This document shows, piece by piece, positions 3,841 through 13,489 of a stretch of 64,000 bases of DNA (the first letter of the stretch is position 1; every line of letters begins with the position of its first letter). The position numbers were made by a program, and so were the translations under genes. The notes beneath the pieces are model-generated. The model was not told the origin of the DNA, did not search any database, and saw nothing but the letters and a program-made list of their open reading frames with translations. This DNA is from Acidimicrobiia bacterium (lineage in GTDB: Bacteria; Actinomycetota; Acidimicrobiia; IMCC26256; JAENVU01), in NCBI GenBank assembly GCA_038250905.1, contig JBBSBV010000002.1:71403-135402 (forward strand), given 5' to 3'.

Positions 3841-5463
3841 TTACCCGCGGATCTCGGCGCGGAGCAAGCCATAGACGATCGAATCCGCCAGGGCCTGCCA
3901 ACTCGCCTCGATGATGTTTTCGCTCACGCCGATCGTGGTCCACGACTGTTCGCCGTCCGTACTGTCGAGCAGCACCCGGGTGATGGCGCCGGTGCCCTTC
4001 TGGGTGTCGAGGACGCGGACCTTGTAATCGGTGAGGTGGACCCGGTCGAGCGCCGGATACCGGTTGGCCAGTGCCGCACGCAGCGCCCGGTCGAGGGCAT
4101 TCACCGGGCCGTTGCCCTCCTCGGTCGCGATCAGCCGGTCGTCGCCGACCCGGAGCTTGATGGTCGCTTCGGTGAGCACACCGTCAGGCGCCTCGCCCGC
4201 GGTCGTCGTGGGACTCGCGTCGTCGGTGATGACCCGGAACGACTCGACGTGGAACCAGTCGTGCTCCCACCCGGTCGCCCGTCGCATCAGGAGTTCCAAC
4301 GACGCGTCGGCCACCTCGAAGTGGTAGCCCTCGTGCTCGAGGTGCTTGAGCGTGTCGACCACCTGGTTGACGGTCGGCCCGTCGAGTTCGAGTCCGAGTT
4401 CCTTCGCCTTGAGCTGGATCGTCGACTTCCCCGCGAGTTCCGACATCACGAACCGCGTGCCGTTGCCCACCGTGTCGGGCTGGATGTGCTCGTAGGCGTC
4501 CGGCCGCTTGACGATCGCGCTCACGTGCAGACCGGCCTTGTGCGCGAACGCGGACGTCCCCACGTAGGCCGCCTGCGGGTTGAGCGACATGTTCACCAGC
4601 TCGGCCACGTGGTGCGCGACCGGAGTCAGACGCTCCATGCGCTCGGGCGGCAGCGTCTCGATCCCCATTTTGAGCGTGAGGTTCGGGATGATCGTCGTGA
4701 GGTTGCAGTTCCCGGTGCGCTCGCCGTACCCGTTGATCGTGCCCTGCACCTGGGTCGCGCCTCCGAGCACACCGGCGAGGGCGTTCGCCACACCGCAGCC
4801 GGTGTCGTCGTGCAGGTGGACCCCGACGTTCACGTCGGCACCCACGTACCCGACCACGGCCCGCACCGTTGCCTCCACCTCGTGCGGGAGGCTGCCGCCG
4901 TTGGTGTCACACAGCACGAGGCAGTCGACGCCGGCCTGGACCGCGCCTTCGAGTACCCGCAGACTGAACTCGGGGTTGCGCTTGAAGCCGTCGAAGAAGT
5001 GTTCCGCGTCGAACAGGACCTCGCGTCCGAGCCCCTTCAGGTACTCGATCGAGTCGGAGACCATCGCGACACCCTCGTCGAGGGTCGTGCCGAGCGCCTC
5101 GACCACGTGGTAGTCCCAGCACTTCCCCACGATGCAGACCGTGCCGGTGTTGGCGTCGACGAGGTGGCGCAGCGTGTCGTCCGAGTCGACCCGACCCTTC
5201 ACCCGCCTCGTCATCCCGAACGCCACCAGGGTGCTGTGTTCGAGGTGCATCTCGTGCTGGGCCCGCTGGAAGAGTTCGTCGTCCTTCGGGTTCGCACCCG
5301 GCCATCCGGCCTCGATGTAGTCGACACCGAGCCAGTCGAGTTGCTCCGCGATCCGCAACTTGTCGTCGACGGTCAGCGAGATGCCCTCGAGCTGGGAACC
5401 GTCCCGCAGCGTGGTGTCGTAGATCTGGACGCGCGCCGGGAGGGTGACGTCATTCGTCGACAT
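3841..5463 (-). CDS. cimA: citramalate synthase / LeuA-family (long form with C-terminal regulatory domain)
   Basis: VQIYDTTLRDGSQLEGISLTVDDKLRIAEQLDWLGVDYIEAGWPGANPKD is the typical CimA/LeuA-type HMGL-like N-terminus; about 540 aa. ATG 5463 preferred over 5487. Confidence 0.75.
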   Translation of the reverse strand: MSTNDVTLPARVQIYDTTLRDGSQLEGISLTVDDKLRIAEQLDWLGVDYIEAGWPGANPKDDELFQRAQHEMHLEHSTLVAFGMTRRVKGRVDSDDTLRHLVDANTGTVCIVGKCWDYHVVEALGTTLDEGVAMVSDSIEYLKGLGREVLFDAEHFFDGFKRNPEFSLRVLEGAVQAGVDCLVLCDTNGGSLPHEVEATVRAVVGYVGADVNVGVHLHDDTGCGVANALAGVLGGATQVQGTINGYGERTGNCNLTTIIPNLTLKMGIETLPPERMERLTPVAHHVAELVNMSLNPQAAYVGTSAFAHKAGLHVSAIVKRPDAYEHIQPDTVGNGTRFVMSELAGKSTIQLKAKELGLELDGPTVNQVVDTLKHLEHEGYHFEVADASLELLMRRATGWEHDWFHVESFRVITDDASPTTTAGEAPDGVLTEATIKLRVGDDRLIATEEGNGPVNALDRALRAALANRYPALDRVHLTDYKVRVLDTQKGTGAITRVLLDSTDGEQSWTTIGVSENIIEASWQALADSIVYGLLRAEIRG

Positions 5464-6370
5464 GCTCACACCAACTCTTGTATGCATCGGTCTGCCCGCG
5501 CACCGCCTTCGCGTATTCGGCTGCGATCACCTGGGTCATCGGACCAGGACACGGGATCACGCGGTCGTCGACCGAGTTCACGGCGCTCACCTCGGCTGCG
5601 GTACCGCACACGAACATCTCCTCCGCCACGTAGAGGTCGCTGCGGGTCAGCTGTCCGACGCGCACCTCGAAGCCGTGGTCACGGGCGATCGTCATCACCG
5701 AGTCCTGGGTGATGCCCTCGAGCGCGCCCGCCGAGATGGGCGGCGTGATCAGCGCACCGTTGCGGGCCACGAAGATGTTCTCGCCGGTGCACTCGCTCAC
5801 GTAGCCGTCGAGGTTCAGCATGATCGCCTCGTCGTACCCGGCCTTCAGCGCTTCGACCTTGGCAAGTGAGGAGTTCACGTAGTTCCCGGTGGTCTTCGAC
5901 GCCGGCGGCATCACGTTGTGGTCGTGGCGCGCCCACGAACTGATCTTCATCCGCACGCCCTTGGAAACCGCGTCGTCGCCCAGGTAGGCACCCCACGGCC
6001 AACATGCGATCGACACGTCGACCGAACACGGCAACGTGTTGAGGCCCATCTCGCCGTAGCCGTAGTACGCGATCGGACGCACGTAACAACTCGGCAGCCC
6101 CGACGACCGCACGGTGTCCTTGCAGGCCTGGACCAACTCGTCGACGGAGTACGGGATCTCCATCATGAGGATCTTCGCCGAGTTGAACAATCGCTCGATG
6201 TGGTCCGTGAGCCGGAAGATCGCGGGGCCGCGATCGGTCTCGTAGGCGCGGATGCCCTCGAACACGCCCATGCCGTAGTGGAGCGAGTGCGTGAGAATGT
6301 GAATCCGCGCGTCGTCCCAGTCGACGAGCGCGCCATTCATCCAGATCTTCTTCGTTGCCTCGATCGGCAT
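5450..6370 (-). CDS. ilvE: branched-chain amino acid aminotransferase (class IV)
   Basis: KIWMNGALVDWDDARIHILTHSLHYGMGVFEGIRAY... and ...GENIFVARNGALITPP..., full-length IlvE-like, 306 aa. Confidence 0.9.
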   Translation of the reverse strand: MPIEATKKIWMNGALVDWDDARIHILTHSLHYGMGVFEGIRAYETDRGPAIFRLTDHIERLFNSAKILMMEIPYSVDELVQACKDTVRSSGLPSCYVRPIAYYGYGEMGLNTLPCSVDVSIACWPWGAYLGDDAVSKGVRMKISSWARHDHNVMPPASKTTGNYVNSSLAKVEALKAGYDEAIMLNLDGYVSECTGENIFVARNGALITPPISAGALEGITQDSVMTIARDHGFEVRVGQLTRSDLYVAEEMFVCGTAAEVSAVNSVDDRVIPCPGPMTQVIAAEYAKAVRGQTDAYKSWCEHVDE

Positions 6371-6373
6371 CGT

Positions 6374-7366
6374 TCACACCCTTTCGGCAATACGGGAACC
6401 GACTTCTGCAGTGGAGCCGGTGACATCGTCGGAAGTCGCGATCGCCGCGTGGATCCGCGCCGCCGCATCGGTCTCACCGAGGAACTCGAGCATCATCGCG
6501 GCACTGATGATCGCAGCACGCGGGTCGGCAGTGCCGGTGCCGGCGATGTCGGGCGCGGAGCCGTGGACCGGCTCGAAGAGTGACGGACCGGTGCGCGCCG
6601 GGTTCAGGTTGCCCGAGGCCGCCCGCCCGATGCCGCCGCCGATGGCGCCCCCGAGGTCGGTGAGGATGTCGCCGAAGAGATTGTCGGTGACGATCACGTC
6701 GTAGCGCTCGGGTCGCTGTACGAAATGGATGCAGGCGGCGTCCACGTGGTCGTAGCCCGTCGCCACGCCCGGGTATTCGGATGCGACGGCCTCGAACGTC
6801 CGCTGCCAGAGATCACCGGCGAACGTGAGCACGTTGGTCTTGTGGACCAGCGTCAGGTGGTGCGCATCACGGCTCTGGGCGAGATCGAACGCGTACCGCA
6901 CACACCGCTCGACCCCCATCCGGGTGTTGACCGACCCCTGGGTCGCGATCTCGAAGGGCGTGTCCTTGCGCAGGAACCCACCCTCACCCGCATAGGTCCC
7001 CTCGGTGTTCTCGCGGATCACGATCATGTCGACGCCGTCGTTGAGCACACTCGCCGGGGCGAGGAACGGCCGGTGGTTCACGTAGAGGTCGAGCGCGAAG
7101 CGCATCTTGAGCAGCAGGCCGCGCTCGAGCACGCCCGGAGGCACCTCCGGTGTGCCGACCGCGCCGAGGAGGATCGCGTCGAGGCCGCGCAGTTCCTCGA
7201 GGACCGAGTCCGGCAGCACCTCGCCGGTCGCGAGGTAGCGGGCCCCGCCGAGGTCGTAGGACACCGTTTCGTAGGCGATGCCGGTCGCGTCGACGACCTT
7301 GAGTGCCTCGGCCACGACTTCGGGACCGATCCCGTCGCCGCCGATGATGCCGATCCGATGGACCAC
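6374..7366 (-). CDS. leuB: 3-isopropylmalate dehydrogenase
   Basis: [21 protein letters not shown]...[35 protein letters not shown]...[15 protein letters not shown] 7366 lies 7 nt after GAGGAG. Confidence 0.9.
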
Positions 7367-7438
7367 CCATGCTCCTCGTGGTGGGTTCCGAGTTCCTACA
7401 GCGAACGCGGAACGCGATCTTTTGGTCTGGGCCCTCAC

Positions 7439-7498
7439 AACGAAAAACCGCCCACCGAAGTGGACGGTCGAGAGCGAACGCCGGTGCGGCGTCCGCTC
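7439..7498 (-). promoter_or_regulatory. transcription attenuator upstream of leuB (hairpin + UUCG-loop terminator + U run)
   Basis: Minus-strand RNA: a 12-bp perfect hairpin GAGCGGACGCCG-CAC-CGGCGTTCGCTC (7472-7498), spacer TCGA, then CCGTCCAC-TTCG-GTGGGCGG (7448-7467), then TTTTTCGTT (7439-7447). Confidence 0.55.
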
Positions 7499-7529
7499 AG
7501 GGAATGATGACGATGCGTCGTGAAGACAT
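7497..7529 (-). CDS. putative Ile/Val-rich leader peptide [10 protein letters not shown]
   Basis: ATG TCT TCA CGA CGC ATC GTC ATC ATT CCC TGA. The stop overlaps the first hairpin of the attenuator. No SD; TAGCCT lies 9 nt upstream of the ATG. Confidence 0.45.
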
Positions 7530-7665
7530 AGCCCGATGAGGCTAGCAGCCGGGCTCGTCGCACGGCGGTGGGATTCCTCCGGGCGGGCCTCCCGCCTGGT
7601 GCAGCCCGCGCCGGGCCGGTGACCGAGACGACCCCGACGGCGGGGCGGCGGATACCCTCGCAGCG

Positions 7666-8136
7666 ATGGAACCGACCCAGCTGTCCGCCACCGCTCACGA
7701 ACGCCTCGTCGCCGAGCTGACCAACCGGACGGGACCGCTGCGGTTCGAGATCGCCGAACGGATCGAGCGGGCCCGGGAGCTCGGCGACCTCAAGGAGAAC
7801 GCCGACTACGACGCGGCGAAGAACGAGCAGGGCCTCAACGAGGCTCGGGTCCGCCAACTCGAAGCGATGCTGCGCGACGCCGAGATCGTCGACGGCGCGT
7901 CGGGCGACGTGGTCGAGGCCGGGGTGATCGTGGAGATCCGGATCGACGGTGACGACGAGACCCAGTCGTATCTCATCGGCTCGATCGAGGAGCGCAACGA
8001 CACCTACGACGTGCTGTCGACCAGCTCACCGCTCGGTCAGGCACTCGAGGGCAAGCGGGCCGGTGAGACAGCCACCTACGACACGCCCAAGCGCGCCGAG
8101 GTCGCCGTCGAAGTCGTCGCGATCCGCCCGCTCTGA
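7666..8136 (+). CDS. greA: transcription elongation factor GreA
   Basis: [38 protein letters not shown]... and ...[15 protein letters not shown], 156 aa. Confidence 0.9.
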
Positions 8137-8145
8137 CCGAACCCG

Positions 8146-10833
8146 TCACCCCCGTCGGGTGATCCGGGCGAGCCGCGATCGAGCTTGCCGGCCCTCGACG
8201 ATCGCGTCGCGGATCGCCTCCTTCTCGCTGCGCATGAGTTTTCTCCCGTCCCGGTTCGTCAGGGAGAACTGGTCGATCGCGATGCCGTCGCGGACCGAAA
8301 CGTCGGCCGCATGCACGCTCGCACCGCACGCGGCGAGTGCTGCGGACACGATCGCCAGCAGGCCCGGACGGTCGACGTGTCGCAGCTCGCAGATCGTGTA
8401 CCACGGCGATCCGGCATCGTCGAACGCAACGGTTGCATCCGCGAGCGCGGCGGATTCCACCCCCCGGCCGAGCTGATGCTCGATCGCGGACGCGAGCTGG
8501 CGCTCGTCGACGAGGTCCGCGCCGGGCCGGGGCTCGACGGTGAAGGTCTCGAGCGCAGTGCCGTCACCCCAGGTCGCGACCCGGGCGCTCACGACGTCGA
8601 GTTCGAACTCGGCGAACACACTGGTCACGGATGCGAGCAGACCTGGCTGGTCGCGGGCGATGACGTCGATCGCCGGGATCCGATCCGCGGTGGGCGAGAA
8701 GTGGACCCGCACCTCACGCCGTTCCGGCCGTGGTTCCAGCAGCTTCGCGTGGCGCACGACCCGCTCCGGAGCCTCGGCGAGCAGGTACGGCCACGGTGCG
8801 TGTTCGATCCGGTCGATCAGCACGGGATCGGATCCGGCCAGGCGAATCGCCTCGTCCCGACGGGTGGCAAACGCGTCGGAGGACCCGCTCGCGTCGAGTT
8901 CGTCGAAGGTCGCGATCACCCGCTGTAACAAGGTGTCGAGTCGGTCGCGGTCGACCGGGGTGAGCGAACCGATCGCCAGGTCGAGCAGGTACAGGGATCG
9001 GGCCCGATCACGCGTCATCAGGTGTGACGTCAGGGCGAGGACCGACGCCTCGGTCAAGCCGTCGCGTCGGGCCGAGACGCCCCGCAGGACGCCGTGGTCG
9101 GCGGAGAAGGCCAAGAGGTCGTCGTGCGCCCCGGACCCCAGGTCGAATCGATCCACGAGCGACCGCACCAGTTCGACCGGCGGATGCTCACCCGCGATGT
9201 CGATCACCAACGCCGCCAGGACGACGCCGTCGGGATGCTCGAGTCGTGAATGCACCGCCATCGCCATCGGGTCCTGGCGCACGAGCCGTTGCAACGAGTC
9301 GATCGTGCCGAACCGAACGACCCGGGTCGGGTCCACCATCTCGGGGTCACGGTGCCAACGTTCGACCGCGTCCGCCACCTCGGGGAGCGATCGCACCAAC
9401 ACGCCGGAGGTGTCGAGGAAGCGCCAACCCCGGTCGTTCCCGCGCACCAGGACCTCGACCAGCCGCGCCGTGGTCTCGGCCGTCCACGGAGCCGGATCCC
9501 CGAGCGCCAACCAGGTGACCAGCCGGCTCCCGGGTCTCGCGCCACTCGAGATGAAGAGCGCGGCGTCGAGGGCCACGAGGGTCTGCATCTCCTGAGGTGG
9601 ATTCGCGGCCAGGTCGACCACACCGTCGTCGACCCAGAGCCAGCCCGACGCCGGCATCGGGTCGACCGTCTCCGATCGCGCGGCACCGCGAAGCGCGCGC
9701 AGCCTCATCCGCAGCAGCGGAGGCGCCATCAGCGTGGTCACGAGCACGACGAGCAGCAGCGAGGCGTAGAGATCGCGTCCCAGGACGTGGTTCGACAATC
9801 CGATGGTGGCGAAGATGAGGCCGACCTCGCCGCGGGGGATCATCCCGATCCCGATCAACAACTTGTCCCCGGGCGAACCGAAGACCGCGACGGCCGATAC
9901 GAGCTTGCCGATCAGGGCAACGACCACGAGCACGCCGGCGACGCCGAGCACCGTGGGGTCCACGAATCGTTCCACCTGGGCCGCGATGCCGATCTGGAGG
10001 AAGAACACCGGCACGAACAGGTGGCCCACCGGCGTGAGGTCCCGGGCGATCCGCTCGCGCGATTCCGTACGGGAGAGTGCGAGCCCCGCCACGAAGGCAC
10101 CGACGATCGGCGCCAGCTTGGCGATGTCGGCGAGTTCGGCGAACGCCAACGCGAACGCGAGTGCCAACGCGACGAGGGTTCCGGCCGACCGCGAACGCCG
10201 CTGGATGAACCGGAACAGGACGGCGCCGAGCCGGCCCCCGAGCACGGTGGTCACCACGAGGAACCCGACCGCCAGCAACACGGTCGACGCGACCGTCGCG
10301 ACCGAAACGGAACCATCGGCCACGACCTTGACGACGATCGTCAGCAGCACCAGACCGAGGACGTCGTCGGCAACGGCCGCGCCGAGCACCGTACGGGCCT
10401 CGACCGTCGCCAGCGCACCGAGGTCGCTGAAGACCCGCGCCGTGATCCCCACACTCGTCGCGGCCAACGCCGCGCCGAGGAACAGCGCCGTATTCGACTC
10501 GTAGCCCATGGCAACGCCGGCGGCGTAGCCGCCGATGAGCGGGACCACCACGCCGAGGACCGCGACCGACACCGATGCTCGACCGACCGCGGCGAGATCG
10601 TCGATGTCCATCTCCATCCCGACCTGGAGGAGCAGCAGGATCACGCCGAGTTCGGCCAAGACGTCGAGGGCATTCGAGGAACCGACGAGACCCAGCAGCG
10701 ACGGCCCCACGATGACCCCGGCCACGATTTCGCCGACGACGGCGGGGATGTTGAGACGCTCCGCGATCTCCGCCGCGATCTTGGCCGCGATCAGGATGAA
10801 GAGGACGTCGCGCAGTACTTCGGTGGCGCTCAC
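8146..10833 (-). CDS. CPA2-family cation/proton antiporter fused to a GlnD-like C-terminal module (degenerate HD region + two ACT domains)
   Basis: N-terminus VLFILIAAKIAAEIAERLNIPAVVGEIVAGVIVGPSLLG plus about 12 TM segments. C-terminus has GlnD-like SARRDGLTEASVLALTSHL...SLYLLDLAIG and two ACT domains (DQPGLLASVTSVF..., DRPGLLAIVSAAL...). GTG 10833 forms a GTGA overlap with the upstream stop. Confidence 0.8.
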   Translation of the reverse strand: MSATEVLRDVLFILIAAKIAAEIAERLNIPAVVGEIVAGVIVGPSLLGLVGSSNALDVLAELGVILLLLQVGMEMDIDDLAAVGRASVSVAVLGVVVPLIGGYAAGVAMGYESNTALFLGAALAATSVGITARVFSDLGALATVEARTVLGAAVADDVLGLVLLTIVVKVVADGSVSVATVASTVLLAVGFLVVTTVLGGRLGAVLFRFIQRRSRSAGTLVALALAFALAFAELADIAKLAPIVGAFVAGLALSRTESRERIARDLTPVGHLFVPVFFLQIGIAAQVERFVDPTVLGVAGVLVVVALIGKLVSAVAVFGSPGDKLLIGIGMIPRGEVGLIFATIGLSNHVLGRDLYASLLLVVLVTTLMAPPLLRMRLRALRGAARSETVDPMPASGWLWVDDGVVDLAANPPQEMQTLVALDAALFISSGARPGSRLVTWLALGDPAPWTAETTARLVEVLVRGNDRGWRFLDTSGVLVRSLPEVADAVERWHRDPEMVDPTRVVRFGTIDSLQRLVRQDPMAMAVHSRLEHPDGVVLAALVIDIAGEHPPVELVRSLVDRFDLGSGAHDDLLAFSADHGVLRGVSARRDGLTEASVLALTSHLMTRDRARSLYLLDLAIGSLTPVDRDRLDTLLQRVIATFDELDASGSSDAFATRRDEAIRLAGSDPVLIDRIEHAPWPYLLAEAPERVVRHAKLLEPRPERREVRVHFSPTADRIPAIDVIARDQPGLLASVTSVFAEFELDVVSARVATWGDGTALETFTVEPRPGADLVDERQLASAIEHQLGRGVESAALADATVAFDDAGSPWYTICELRHVDRPGLLAIVSAALAACGASVHAADVSVRDGIAIDQFSLTNRDGRKLMRSEKEAIRDAIVEGRQARSRLARITRRG

Positions 10834-11318
10834 TTGGTCGGTTCGATGGCTTGCAAGAGGTACCCACGGGACCGCACGGTCCGGACCTCGAGCGCCAGGG
10901 CAGCGATACGACGGCGGAGTCGCACCATATGGACGTCGAGCGCGTTCCGTGACGGCAACCCGTCGGGCCACGCGCGGCGCCGCAACGTCTCCCGGCCTGC
11001 GACCGCCCCGTACCGCTCGATCAGGGGAACCGCGAGGGCCTGCTCCACCGGGGACAACGACACCCAGCTGCCGCGGAACCACAGCAAGCCGTCATCGTCG
11101 AGACGCGGGCGCTCGGTGCCCGATCGGGTGACCAACGCCGAGAGCCGGGCCCGGACGTCGCGGTCGTCGGCCGGGAGCCGGATCCAGTCCTCGAGTGGGT
11201 CGTTGCAGCTCGGTGGCGGCTCCCCCGGCTCGACGAGCAGCAGACGGGGCCGGGCTCCCTGTTCGAGCTCGGCGCGGCGCGTGGACTCTTCGGGCCAACG
11301 CAGTAAGACGACATCCAT
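10830..11318 (-). CDS. winged-helix (OmpR/PhoB-type) DNA-binding protein with a degenerate receiver-like N-terminus
   Basis: C-terminus LSPVEQALAVPLIERYGAVAGRETLRRRAWPD...ALDVHMVRLRRRIAALALEVRTVRSRGYLL. ATG 11318 chosen because TACTTT lies 6 nt upstream (leaderless-like). ATG 11351 is an alternative start. Confidence 0.6.
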   Translation of the reverse strand: MDVVLLRWPEESTRRAELEQGARPRLLLVEPGEPPPSCNDPLEDWIRLPADDRDVRARLSALVTRSGTERPRLDDDGLLWFRGSWVSLSPVEQALAVPLIERYGAVAGRETLRRRAWPDGLPSRNALDVHMVRLRRRIAALALEVRTVRSRGYLLQAIEPTK

Positions 11319-11489
11319 GCGGCCAAAGTAGGGAGGACAGATTTCCATCATGTTTCGAGCTGGTGAAGGGACGCGGTCCCGGCCACGTAGCCGCGTTGGA
11401 CCCCACCGACGGCGATTTTCGAACCCGGTGCAGCAAGATGCGCGCCGTAAGCTTCGGATCCCTGACGAACCGAGGAGTGAACGGCCGGC

Positions 11490-12893
11490 ATGGGTCAAAC
11501 GCTGAGCGAAAAAGTGTGGGAGCGCCACGTGGTCCGACGGGCCGAGGGCGAACCCGACCTGTTGTACATCGATCTCCATCTGATCCACGAGGTGACATCA
11601 CCCCAGGCCTTCGACGGTCTGCGACTCAGCCATCGGGGGGTTCGCCGCCCCGAGTTGACCGTCGCGACGATGGACCACAATGTCCCGACCTCCGGGCTCG
11701 AACTCGGGATCACGGACCCGGTGTCGCGGCGCCAGATCGAGGTCCTCGACACCAACTGTTCTGAGTTCGGCGTGAAGCTCTACGGCATGGGCGACCCCGG
11801 CCAGGGCATCGTCCACATCATCGGCCCCGAGCAGGGGCTCACCCAACCGGGCATGACGATCGTCTGCGGGGACAGCCACACCTCGACCCACGGTGCGTTC
11901 GGTGCGCTCGCGTTCGGCATCGGGACCAGTGAGGTCGAGCACGTCCTCGCCACCCAGACGCTGCCCCAGCAGAAGCCGGGCACCATGGCCATCACGGTCG
12001 AGGGCGCGCTCCCCGCGGGCGTCACGGCCAAGGATCTCGTGCTCGCGATCATCGGACGCATCGGCACGGGCGGCGGGATCGGCTCGGTCATCGAGTACCG
12101 CGGGGCCGCGATCCGAGCCCTGTCGATGGAAGGCCGGATGACCGTCTGCAACATGTCGATCGAGGCCGGAGCCCGGGCGGGTCTGATCGCGCCGGACGAG
12201 ACCACGTTCGAATACCTGCAAGGCCGGCCGTTCGCACCGAGCGGGGCCGACTGGGACGCCGCGGTCGCCGACTGGCGGTCGCTCGTCACCGACGCCGATG
12301 CCGAGTTCGACCGTGAGGTCGTCATCGACGCGAGCACGCTCCGCCCGTTCGTCACGTGGGGGACCAATCCGGCCCAGAGCGTGCCGATCGATGCCGTCGT
12401 CCCCGATCCCGCATCGCTCGAATCAGCGAGCGACCAGGAATCCGCCACCCGCGCGCTCCAGTACATGGGCCTGACGGCGGGGACCGCAGTACGTGACATC
12501 CCGGTCGACACCGTGTTCATCGGCTCGTGCACGAACGCCCGCATCGAGGACCTCCGCGCCGCGGCTGCGGTCGCGGCTGGTCGCCACGTGAAAGCCGGCA
12601 TACGCACGTTGGTGGTCCCCGGATCGTTCGCGGTCAAGGCGCAGGCCGAGGCCGAAGGCCTCGACGACGTGTTCCGCGCCGCCGGGTTCGACTGGCGCGA
12701 GCCGGGGTGCTCCATGTGCCTAGCGATGAACCCCGACAAGCTCACCGTCGGCGAACGGTGCGCGAGCACGAGCAACCGGAACTTCGAGGGCCGCCAAGGT
12801 CAGGGTGGGCGCACCCACCTCGTGTCGCCCGCGGTCGCCGCGGCCACCGCCATCGCCGGCCATTTCGCCACCCCCGAGGACTTGGAGCACTGA
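11490..12893 (+). CDS. leuC: 3-isopropylmalate dehydratase large subunit
   Basis: [15 protein letters not shown]...[17 protein letters not shown]...[22 protein letters not shown]...[11 protein letters not shown]...[10 protein letters not shown]. Confidence 0.92.
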
Positions 12894-13489
12894 TGCAGGC
12901 CGTTCGTGAGATCGTCGCCCCCGGCGTACCGCTCGACCGGTCCGACGTCGACACCGACCAGATCATTCCGTCGGAATGGCTGAAGCGGGTGGAACGCACC
13001 GGCTTCGGCGCCGGCCTCTTCTCGGAGTGGCGCGAGCGGTCGGACTTCGTACTCAATCAGGACCGTTACGCCGACGCACGCATCCTCGTCGCCGGGCCGA
13101 ACTTCGGCACCGGATCGTCGCGCGAACATGCGGTCTGGGCACTGCAGGACTACGGCTTCCGGGCCGTGATCTCGTCCCGCTTCGCCGACATCTTCCGCAA
13201 CAACGCGCTCAAGGGCGGCCTGGTCCCCGTGACCCTGCCCGAACCGGTCGTCCGCACGATCATGGCGGCGATCGAGGACGACGCGGCGATCGAGATCGTC
13301 ATCGACGTCGTCGACCGCCGGGTCGCGGTTCCCGCGATCGGACTCGACGAGCCGTTCGTCCTCGACGACTACACCCAGCACCGCCTGCTCGAGGGACTCG
13401 ATGACATCGGCCTCACCGAGAAGTTCGTCGACGTGATCGACACCTTCGAGCAAACGCGTCCGAGTTACCTACCGTCGACGCGGGAGTAG
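12893..13489 (+). CDS. leuD: 3-isopropylmalate dehydratase small subunit
   Basis: DVDTDQIIPSEWLKRVERTGFGAGLFSEWR...GPNFGTGSSREHAVWALQDYGFRAVIS. The ATG overlaps the leuC stop (TGATG). Confidence 0.9.
   Translation: MQAVREIVAPGVPLDRSDVDTDQIIPSEWLKRVERTGFGAGLFSEWRERSDFVLNQDRYADARILVAGPNFGTGSSREHAVWALQDYGFRAVISSRFADIFRNNALKGGLVPVTLPEPVVRTIMAAIEDDAAIEIVIDVVDRRVAVPAIGLDEPFVLDDYTQHRLLEGLDDIGLTEKFVDVIDTFEQTRPSYLPSTRE

Follow-up and report, generated by a model that had tools for sequence, protein, structure and literature searches.

How does a membrane antiporter come to carry the sensory end of a nitrogen-control enzyme, and what could such a protein do for its cell? The question is raised by a minus-strand gene in a stretch of 64,000 nucleotides from an Acidimicrobiia bacterium (contig JBBSBV010000002.1; the whole stretch that was analysed is called the window below). 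The encoded protein of 895 amino acids begins as a NapA-like cation:proton antiporter and continues, in the same reading frame, into a region related to GlnD, the PII uridylyltransferase, which ends in two ACT domains. We suggest that it is an electrogenic Na+/H+ antiporter gated allosterically by its GlnD-derived sensor, probably in response to glutamine, and we put the probability of this reading at about one half.

A single reading frame from antiporter to GlnD-like module

According to the list of open reading frames (ORFs) and the translation, the fusion gene starts with GTG at 10833 and stops at 8146–8148, and all the peptide strings quoted in the first-pass annotation occur in its product. 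The longest possible frame reaches 11082. Since the extra part runs into the upstream gene, which uses a different frame, and the homologous proteins begin at the counterpart of 10833 (family consensus MSVxEVLLDIL...), the start was placed at that position. A search of 5.8 billion proteins returned at least 120 clusters of 894–934 amino acids that span the query from end to end (53–100% identity, 95–100% query coverage), all with PF00999 and ACT.

The first-pass annotation had itself raised the prospect that two separate genes were joined here by misassembly or frameshift. Six of the 73 complete loci (L020, L047, L051, L052, L077, and L078) do show the gene split into two ORFs, and stand-alone modules without a transporter exist, one of which (P0166, locus L082) adjoins an unrelated gene. 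However, transporter and module form one open frame in the other 67, which come from independent assemblies, and the junction between the two parts is conserved (PPLLR...P.P..GWL). All six split loci belong to one assembly series (isolate names MFD...), and our guess is that they contain sequencing-error frameshifts rather than pseudogenes. An artefact was therefore rejected on the 67 single-frame loci and the full-length homologue clusters, and we give it next to no chance; the fusion is a real, conserved gene of uncultured Acidimicrobiia.

The membrane part is covered by the Pfam family PF00999 (Na_H_Exchanger) over residues 17–374, with an E-value of 2.8e-66 and 224 bits against a cut-off of 26.2 bits. 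Compared to all PDB sequences, it matches Thermus thermophilus NapA (4bwz/5bz2) over residues 3–375 with an E-value of about 5e-71 and 42% identity over 368 aligned residues, whereas the match to KefC is much weaker (1e-18). The NCBIfam models for KefB, KefC, and YbaL cover the membrane part alone (residues 2–379), and no Pfam match to a KTN/RCK domain (TrkA_N) was found in the fusion protein at E<=1, just as the first-pass annotation had read it. That annotation had also called the transporter "CPA2/Kef-type." The polytopic CPA2 domain stands, but a Kef-type K+ system was rejected for the NapA type on these E-values and on a Na+-type ATSV...DD...K motif.

Aspartate at position 6 and lysine at position 8 of the cation:proton antiporter (CPA) motif mark the electrogenic CPA2 clades, and a non-polar position 4 marks the Na+-selective members (Masrati et al. 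2018, PMC6181914). The fusion has a non-polar position 4 in transmembrane helix 4, Asp-Asp in helix 5, and lysine in helix 10. Aligned to NapA, the ATSV of the unwound helix 4, D156-D157, K310, and R334/E336 (PRGEVG) are invariant in 120 of the 120 relatives. The identity to NapA and the invariant ion-site motif together argue that the transporter is probably active, and for the membrane part we predict active, electrogenic Na+(Li+)/H+ exchange as in NapA. Because a basic stretch, RMRLRALRGAAR, follows the last transmembrane helix, the C-terminus of the antiporter probably faces the cytoplasm by the positive-inside rule.

The pseudo-HD region and the ACT pair

The NCBIfam model for GlnD, TIGR01693 (UTase_glnD), matches the protein with an E-value of 1.8e-29, residues 450–879 being collinear with positions 374–846 of the 850 in the profile; the score of 102.6 bits lies under the equivalog cut-off of 519.4 bits. 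For profile comparison and modelling, the C-terminal parts of 12 diverse relatives were aligned (alignment A1). The A1 profile aligned with Escherichia coli GlnD at 98% probability and an E-value of 1.4e-13 (module 139–505 on GlnD 489–882), and comparison by hhalign with a canonical Acidimicrobiia GlnD, from locus L028, gave 99.4% and 2.6e-21 (module 18–495 on GlnD 320–815 of 835). By these collinear alignments, the module comprises all of GlnD that follows PF08335, namely the HD-type helical region, preceded by a small beta-hairpin (GWLxVDDGVVDL) and followed by the two ACT domains. It amounts to about 60% of GlnD, and the GlnD-like character first proposed for the C-terminal part is thus borne out.

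What is missing from the module is the catalytic machinery. No Pfam match to the nucleotidyltransferase (NTase) families NTP_transf_2 or DUF294 was found in the fusion, while E. coli GlnD shows both in a like scan; the lack of an NTase domain had been noticed in the first-pass annotation. When residues 372–720 were scanned separately at E<=10, no Pfam family was matched, neither HD (PF01966) nor PF08335 nor an NTase. In E. coli GlnD scanned alike, NTase, PF08335, HD, and ACT were all detected, and PF08335 was also found in the L028 GlnD. The profile hits expected at the outset were accordingly found in part: Na_H_Exchanger and two ACT domains appeared, GlnD homology came from TIGR01693, and the Pfam families PF08335 and HD did not match.

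At the site of the catalytic H514-D515 dyad of GlnD, the protein has I544-D545, so that the degenerate HD region without an intact H..D pair had been correctly described. In the family, column 544 holds L, I, S, A, or F and histidine in 0 of 120, and column 545 holds D in 108 and E in 12. Two N-terminal histidines of the HD motif align to L506 and to the variable position 513, and the last aspartate of the motif aligns to a gap. With the NTase absent and the HD metal ligands lost, the module is no enzyme and cannot modify or demodify PII. Likewise, the fusion protein is not a GlnD: it has no NTase, PF08335, or set of HD ligands, and it scores below the equivalog cut-off. The helical region nevertheless keeps many invariant positions (WRFL, LPE, DP, LAAL, LYLL, AP..YLL), so its scaffold is under selection without catalysis.

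Structure prediction of the C-terminal module, which the first-pass annotation had called for, produced a confident fold. AlphaFold2 on A1 reached a predicted local distance difference test score (pLDDT) of 87 and a predicted template-modelling score (pTM) of 0.82, with the hairpin, helices at 30–314, and ACT domains at 325–403 and 417–496. A Foldseek search of the PDB gave for the helical part a weak best match to 3wfo–3wfs, "tRNA processing enzyme" (E-value 1e-4, TM 0.34–0.41), which we take to be a nucleotidyltransferase of the class-II CCA/A-adding type. For the ACT pair, it gave generic tandem-ACT proteins, including the regulatory domain of threonine deaminase. These matches support the fold class and are silent on the ligand.

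The two ACT domains, also proposed at first, were detected as two stretches of PF01842 (E-value 6e-12, 45.6–48.8 bits against a cut-off of 27 bits), and both units have the beta-alpha-beta-beta-alpha topology in the AlphaFold2 models. An aspartate, a leucine, and a phenylalanine are kept in each: D728, L733, and F764 in the first and D821, L826, and F856 in the second. The aspartates and leucines, which lie in the DxPGLL loops between beta1 and alpha1, are invariant, and F856 is likewise. In PMC11190351, the same three residues are pointed out as conserved when GlnD is compared with plant ACR11 and with AMA2, an algal amylase activated by glutamine. GlnD needs its ACT domains to respond to glutamine (PMC4285133; PMC11190351, which cites Zhang et al. 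2010), and the algal amylase owes its activation by glutamine to the GlnD-like ACT domain joined to it (PMC11190351).

Table 1. Positions of the fusion gene, its parts, and other features discussed in the text. Locations refer to the window unless another record is named.
Feature	Location	Strand	Basis or remark
Fusion gene, 895 aa	8146..10833	minus	NapA-type CPA2 antiporter, GlnD-derived pseudo-HD, and two ACT domains (predicted)
Transmembrane antiporter domain, aa 1–384, NapA-like	9682..10833	minus	PF00999, match to T. thermophilus NapA
D156-D157, predicted ion/proton-binding aspartates of transmembrane helix 5, CPA motif positions 6 and 7	10363..10368	minus	Aligned to NapA D156/D157; role from PMC6181914
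K310, equivalent to NapA K305, CPA motif position 8, electrogenic-CPA2 marker	9904..9906	minus	Alignment; role from PMC6181914
Linker, beta-hairpin, and all-helical GlnD-like region with degenerate HD, aa 385–705	8719..9681	minus	hhalign against GlnD, AlphaFold2
I544-D545, site of the GlnD catalytic H514-D515 dyad, His lost	9199..9204	minus	Alignments to E. coli and L028 GlnD
ACT domain 1, about aa 709–787, loop RDQPGLL	8473..8709	minus	Pfam ACT on 722–767; AlphaFold2 topology
ACT domain 2, about aa 801–880, VDRPGLL, after family-specific FDDxxSPWYT	8194..8433	minus	Second Pfam ACT stretch; AlphaFold2
Small OmpR-family winged-helix regulator	10830..11318	minus	PF00486; start maybe 11318, 11348, or 11351
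cimA	3841–5487	minus	
ilvE	5450–6370	minus	
leuB	6374–7438	minus	
leuCD	11490–13489	plus	
tRNA genes	1602–1674, 1706–1777	minus	RF00005, 58.8 and 57.4 bits
amtB, glnK, glnD, regulator, fusion, second amt (L028)	JBPCMN010000011.1, 1878–11221	one strand	Acidimicrobiia metagenome-assembled genome TH_ant_mag_105
Stand-alone module P0166	L082, 206–1777		Logan SRR23954824 contig
Loci with hydantoinase insert	L014, L015, L018, L019, L022, L025, L032, L037, L039, L040, L043, L045, L047, L050, L055, L062, L071, L077, L078		

Gene neighbourhood and competing explanations

To place the fusion in its genomic context, one genome per species was scanned for the module (185,579 species). The module is encoded in 153 species-level genomes, mostly labelled Acidimicrobiia, which answers the question about taxonomic spread posed in the first-pass annotation, and 80 loci were taken for context. 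The counts below come from tblastn tables, as our own ORF calls had given spurious antisense clusters and false "leuC" labels. Wherever a locus leaves room upstream of the module, a NapA-like domain stands immediately before it.

An ammonium transporter gene, amt (PF00909), lies directly beside the fusion in 26 of the 80 loci, and in 25 of these the two genes share a strand. The gaps between them are 3–190 bp where measured and contain no glnK. In a neighbour-joining tree, these loci account for all the deep branches and also occur here and there in the crown, and two orders were seen, regulator-amt-fusion and regulator-fusion-amt. In L028, all the genes of interest stand together (Table 1): the amtB product has 415 amino acids, the canonical GlnD 835 (with PF08335, HD, and two ACT domains), and the product of the second amt 534. 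As the fusion coexists there with a true GlnD, it is not simply a degraded glnD. Actinobacterial glnD normally closes an amtB-glnK-glnD operon (PMC4285133). The natural neighbourhood of the fusion thus appears to be a nitrogen-control locus, and it is plausible that the fusion arose by duplication and remodelling of such an operon. The adjacency to amt and the L028 operon lend independent contextual support to the idea that the sensor gates transport.

The same loci can be read in other ways, which need not exclude one another. The pseudo-HD region might dock PII (GlnK or GlnK-AMP), so that antiport follows the modification of GlnK or GlnK is held at the membrane. In GlnD, it is the HD domain that removes uridylyl groups from PII (PMC4285133). 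The scaffold has lost catalysis and is still strongly conserved, L028 has a canonical glnK-glnD pair beside the fusion, and in L079 a PII gene is convergent to it. However, these are the only 2 of the 80 loci with PII genes nearby, no domain of GlnD is established as holding PII without catalysis, and docking would leave the conserved ACT pair without a role. We consider PII docking quite improbable.

A second possibility is that the fusion has the adjacent Amt as its main partner and stands in for GlnK. Its cytoplasmic module might plug or activate Amt, or the fusion might compensate the charge or pH of electrogenic NH4+ uptake or itself carry NH4+(K+)/H+, as some CPA2 antiporters are reported to do. 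The same-strand pairing with amt, found across all deep clades, fits such a partnership, and the adjacent Amt of L028 is a distinct, longer paralogue of its AmtB. Against this, amt is missing beside the fusion in about two thirds of the loci, among them the window, and the motif in transmembrane helix 4 is of the Na+ type and not of the K+ type. A partnership of this kind is unlikely, with a small but real chance of being right. A broader proposal also seems to us improbable, namely that regulator, Amt paralogue, and fusion form the core of a PII-independent ammonium-control unit derived from a duplicated and remodelled amtB-glnK-glnD operon. In such a unit, the glutamine-sensing module would take over from GlnK the post-translational control of a dedicated Amt, and NH4+ uptake would be coupled to compensating H+/Na+ exchange.

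In the window itself, the order is cimA, ilvE, leuB, greA, fusion, and regulator, then the divergent leuC-leuD; greA is convergent with the fusion, with 9 bp between the stop codons. The cimA product is recognised as citramalate synthase (TIGR00977, 678 bits, above cut-off), which suggests that the organism makes isoleucine by the citramalate route. Such leu/ilv neighbours are found in about 45 of the 80 loci, the fusion lying between leuCD and greA-leuB-ilvE-cimA. They would fit an ACT pair that senses another metabolite (leucine, isoleucine, or valine, or else a nucleotide or alarmone) and ties the antiporter to general amino-acid status. ACT domains elsewhere bind branched-chain amino acids, the Foldseek matches include the threonine deaminase domain mentioned above, and the best PDB sequence match of the first ACT domain is the C-terminal ACT domain of RelA. 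However, the leu genes lie on other strands or in other transcription units and are missing from all deep-branching and amt-linked loci, so that their presence looks like inherited synteny; moreover, the whole module, and not the ACT domains alone, is collinear with GlnD. We therefore regard a different ligand of this kind as unlikely.

Compared to these alternatives, the favoured reading of a glutamine-gated antiporter draws on what the analysis shows, namely a conserved architecture in which the catalytic residues are lost and those for transport are intact, together with the linkage to other genes, and from these we infer ligand, gating, direction of regulation, ion specificity, and physiological role as follows. 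A single chain would run from a NapA-type exchanger into a cytoplasmic module descended from actinobacterial GlnD. The ACT pair would bind a cytoplasmic metabolite that reports nitrogen status, most probably glutamine as in GlnD, and the pseudo-HD scaffold would relay the conformational change to the antiporter, the module playing the role that the KTN domain has in KefC. Na+/H+ exchange, and hence cytoplasmic pH and the Na+ gradient, would then track nitrogen or ammonium supply. In many relatives, the fusion and a dedicated ammonium transporter paralogue would form one unit. Speculatively, the physiological logic might be to compensate pH or charge during ammonium uptake or ammonia influx or, alternatively, to regulate the Na+ gradient with which nitrogen compounds are taken up.

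Several points weigh against this reading. First, ACT domains bind many different ligands, and the glutamine site of GlnD has, to our knowledge, never been seen structurally. No GlnD structure was found in the PDB by Foldseek, nor by single-sequence or profile search, which returned only RelA and other ACT domains, so there is no reference against which residues of a ligand site could be checked. Second, the AlphaFold2 model of the full-length monomer has a pTM of 0.57, and its domain interfaces and arrangement are not trustworthy. Third, the membrane part scores 186.1 bits with the NCBIfam CPA2 model TIGR00932 (profile positions 1–272 of 275), below the cut-off of 238.3 bits, though by domain and motif the fusion still belongs to the CPA2/NapA kind. 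Fourth, its neighbours in the window are branched-chain amino-acid genes, and no amt, PII gene, or canonical glnD was found within the 64 kb. Finally, there is no established physiological rationale for Na+/H+ exchange that follows glutamine.

The gene directly upstream encodes a small regulator of 162–173 amino acids with a Trans_reg_C domain (PF00486, E-value 7.7e-11). Pfam gave no Response_reg match for a receiver domain, and the NCBIfam matches were weak and almost all to the DNA-binding C-terminal part of response regulators. By eye, its N-terminus reads as a receiver remnant (VVLLRWPEE, LLLVEPGEPPP, then DWIRLP). Its TGA stop codon overlaps the GTG start of the fusion as GTGA. Such overlaps are a typical sign of translational coupling, and the fusion may thus be coupled to the regulator. 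Most of the 80 loci have a homologue of the regulator immediately before the fusion (a match in 54), and in other loci the regulator adjoins amt.

Other features of these loci may be noted. At least one gene for hydantoinase B/oxoprolinase (PF02538, checked in L025 at 11248–12897) stands between the fusion and greA in about 19 loci; the insertion may be a link to glutamate/5-oxoproline metabolism or plain synteny. No riboswitch was found near the fusion, as an Rfam scan of the whole window gave two tRNAs only, and a scan of 7400–11700 for promoters and terminators gave nothing above chance. A GC-rich hairpin followed by a run of T at 7446–7469 on the minus strand resembles a terminator. The leuB start (7438) comes shortly after it, and with respect to greA it is downstream in antisense; it could end read-through from the fusion or belong to the leader of leuB; such sites are not above chance.

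Distribution, known relatives, and significance

The carriers examined all appear to be metagenome bins and not cultured strains: 79 of the 80 loci are titled as metagenome-assembled genomes (MAGs), most of them labelled Acidimicrobiia or Actinomycetota. A few labels are doubtful, namely "uncultured Bifidobacteriaceae" for L006, L017, L035, and L057, "Acidobacteriota" for L063 and L068, and "Mycobacteriales" for L059. These seven look inconsistent because gene content and synteny match the Acidimicrobiia loci; in L006 and L017, for example, leuC, ilvE, and cimA are 82–91% identical to those of the window. One MAG, SRP237561_co1_353, holds two copies of the fusion (L017 and L035), one in the leu context and the other preceded by an amt-like gene. 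They could be paralogues or reflect a mixed bin, and by the same token the genome of the window could hold a second copy outside it.

An exhaustive profile search of 1.84 billion representatives found 593 proteins at E<=1e-30, and the best 150 of these comprise fusions of full length, fragments, and short proteins starting with the module. At least one of the short proteins, P0166, is a genuine stand-alone soluble module of 523 amino acids with ACT matches only and no transporter domain. The unrelated gene ending 80 bp upstream of it is one that we take, from its C-terminal motif, to be PPK2-like. The short representatives P0126, P0135, P0171, P0178, and P0185 may resemble P0166. In the databases, members of the family are named "cation:proton antiporter [Acidimicrobiia bacterium]" or "KefB/predicted amino acid-binding ACT domain protein." The ACT part is thus already annotated there, and the homology to GlnD is absent from the names given.

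Compared to known systems, the fusion shares features with several and departs from each. First, it resembles the electrogenic Na+(Li+)/H+ exchanger NapA of Thermus (4bwz, 5bz2, 5bz3) over the full membrane domain, with the same ATSV, Asp-Asp, Lys, and PRGEVG R/E residues. However, the NapA chains in the PDB have 385–394 residues and are essentially the membrane domain alone, whereas the fusion adds 510 GlnD-derived residues. Second, like GlnD (TIGR01693, EC 2.7.7.59), it is collinear to the C-terminus, has two ACT domains with DxPGLL, and is linked to amt and, in L028, to amtB-glnK-glnD; unlike GlnD, it lacks the NTase, PF08335, and the HD metal ligands, and it scores 103 against 519 bits. 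Third, KefC and KefB are also CPA2 exchangers with a cytoplasmic, ligand-binding regulatory domain at the C-terminus of the same chain, an arrangement that would apply to the fusion as well. Their regulatory fold is a Rossmann-type KTN domain and not a pseudo-HD with ACT domains, and the motif of the fusion is of the Na+ and not the K+ type. Fourth, in plant ACR11 and the Chlamydomonas alpha-amylase AMA2, GlnD-like ACT domains, with the aspartate, leucine, and phenylalanine kept, act as a separable sensor of glutamine for an unrelated effector, either joined to it or acting on it. Their effectors are soluble enzymes, and they have no HD-like scaffold, whereas the fusion joins the whole post-NTase part of GlnD to a membrane transporter.

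In the literature, we found no description of a CPA2 or other cation:proton antiporter with ACT or GlnD-like domains, in agreement with the earlier statement that no characterised transporter has this architecture, and Acidimicrobiia were not named among the matches listed for amtB/glnK/glnD. What is known to gate CPA2 antiporters is either an RCK/KTN domain or pH. If the proposed mechanism is true, the fusion would be, as far as could be found, the first case in which Na+/H+ exchange is tied directly to nitrogen status, and it is of interest to both transporter and nitrogen-regulation research. It would also mean that the post-NTase part of GlnD, the pseudo-HD region with its ACT pair, is an autonomous and transferable sensor cassette, of which a stand-alone soluble version exists too. 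As a non-enzymatic module that is confidently modelled and widespread in Acidimicrobiia, it could be well suited for solving the glutamine site of GlnD. Furthermore, amt-glnK is a very conserved gene pair, and the tight pairing of amt with the fusion without glnK is an exception to it. This pairing offers a testable hypothesis on how abundant uncultured actinobacteria of soil and freshwater may handle ammonium.

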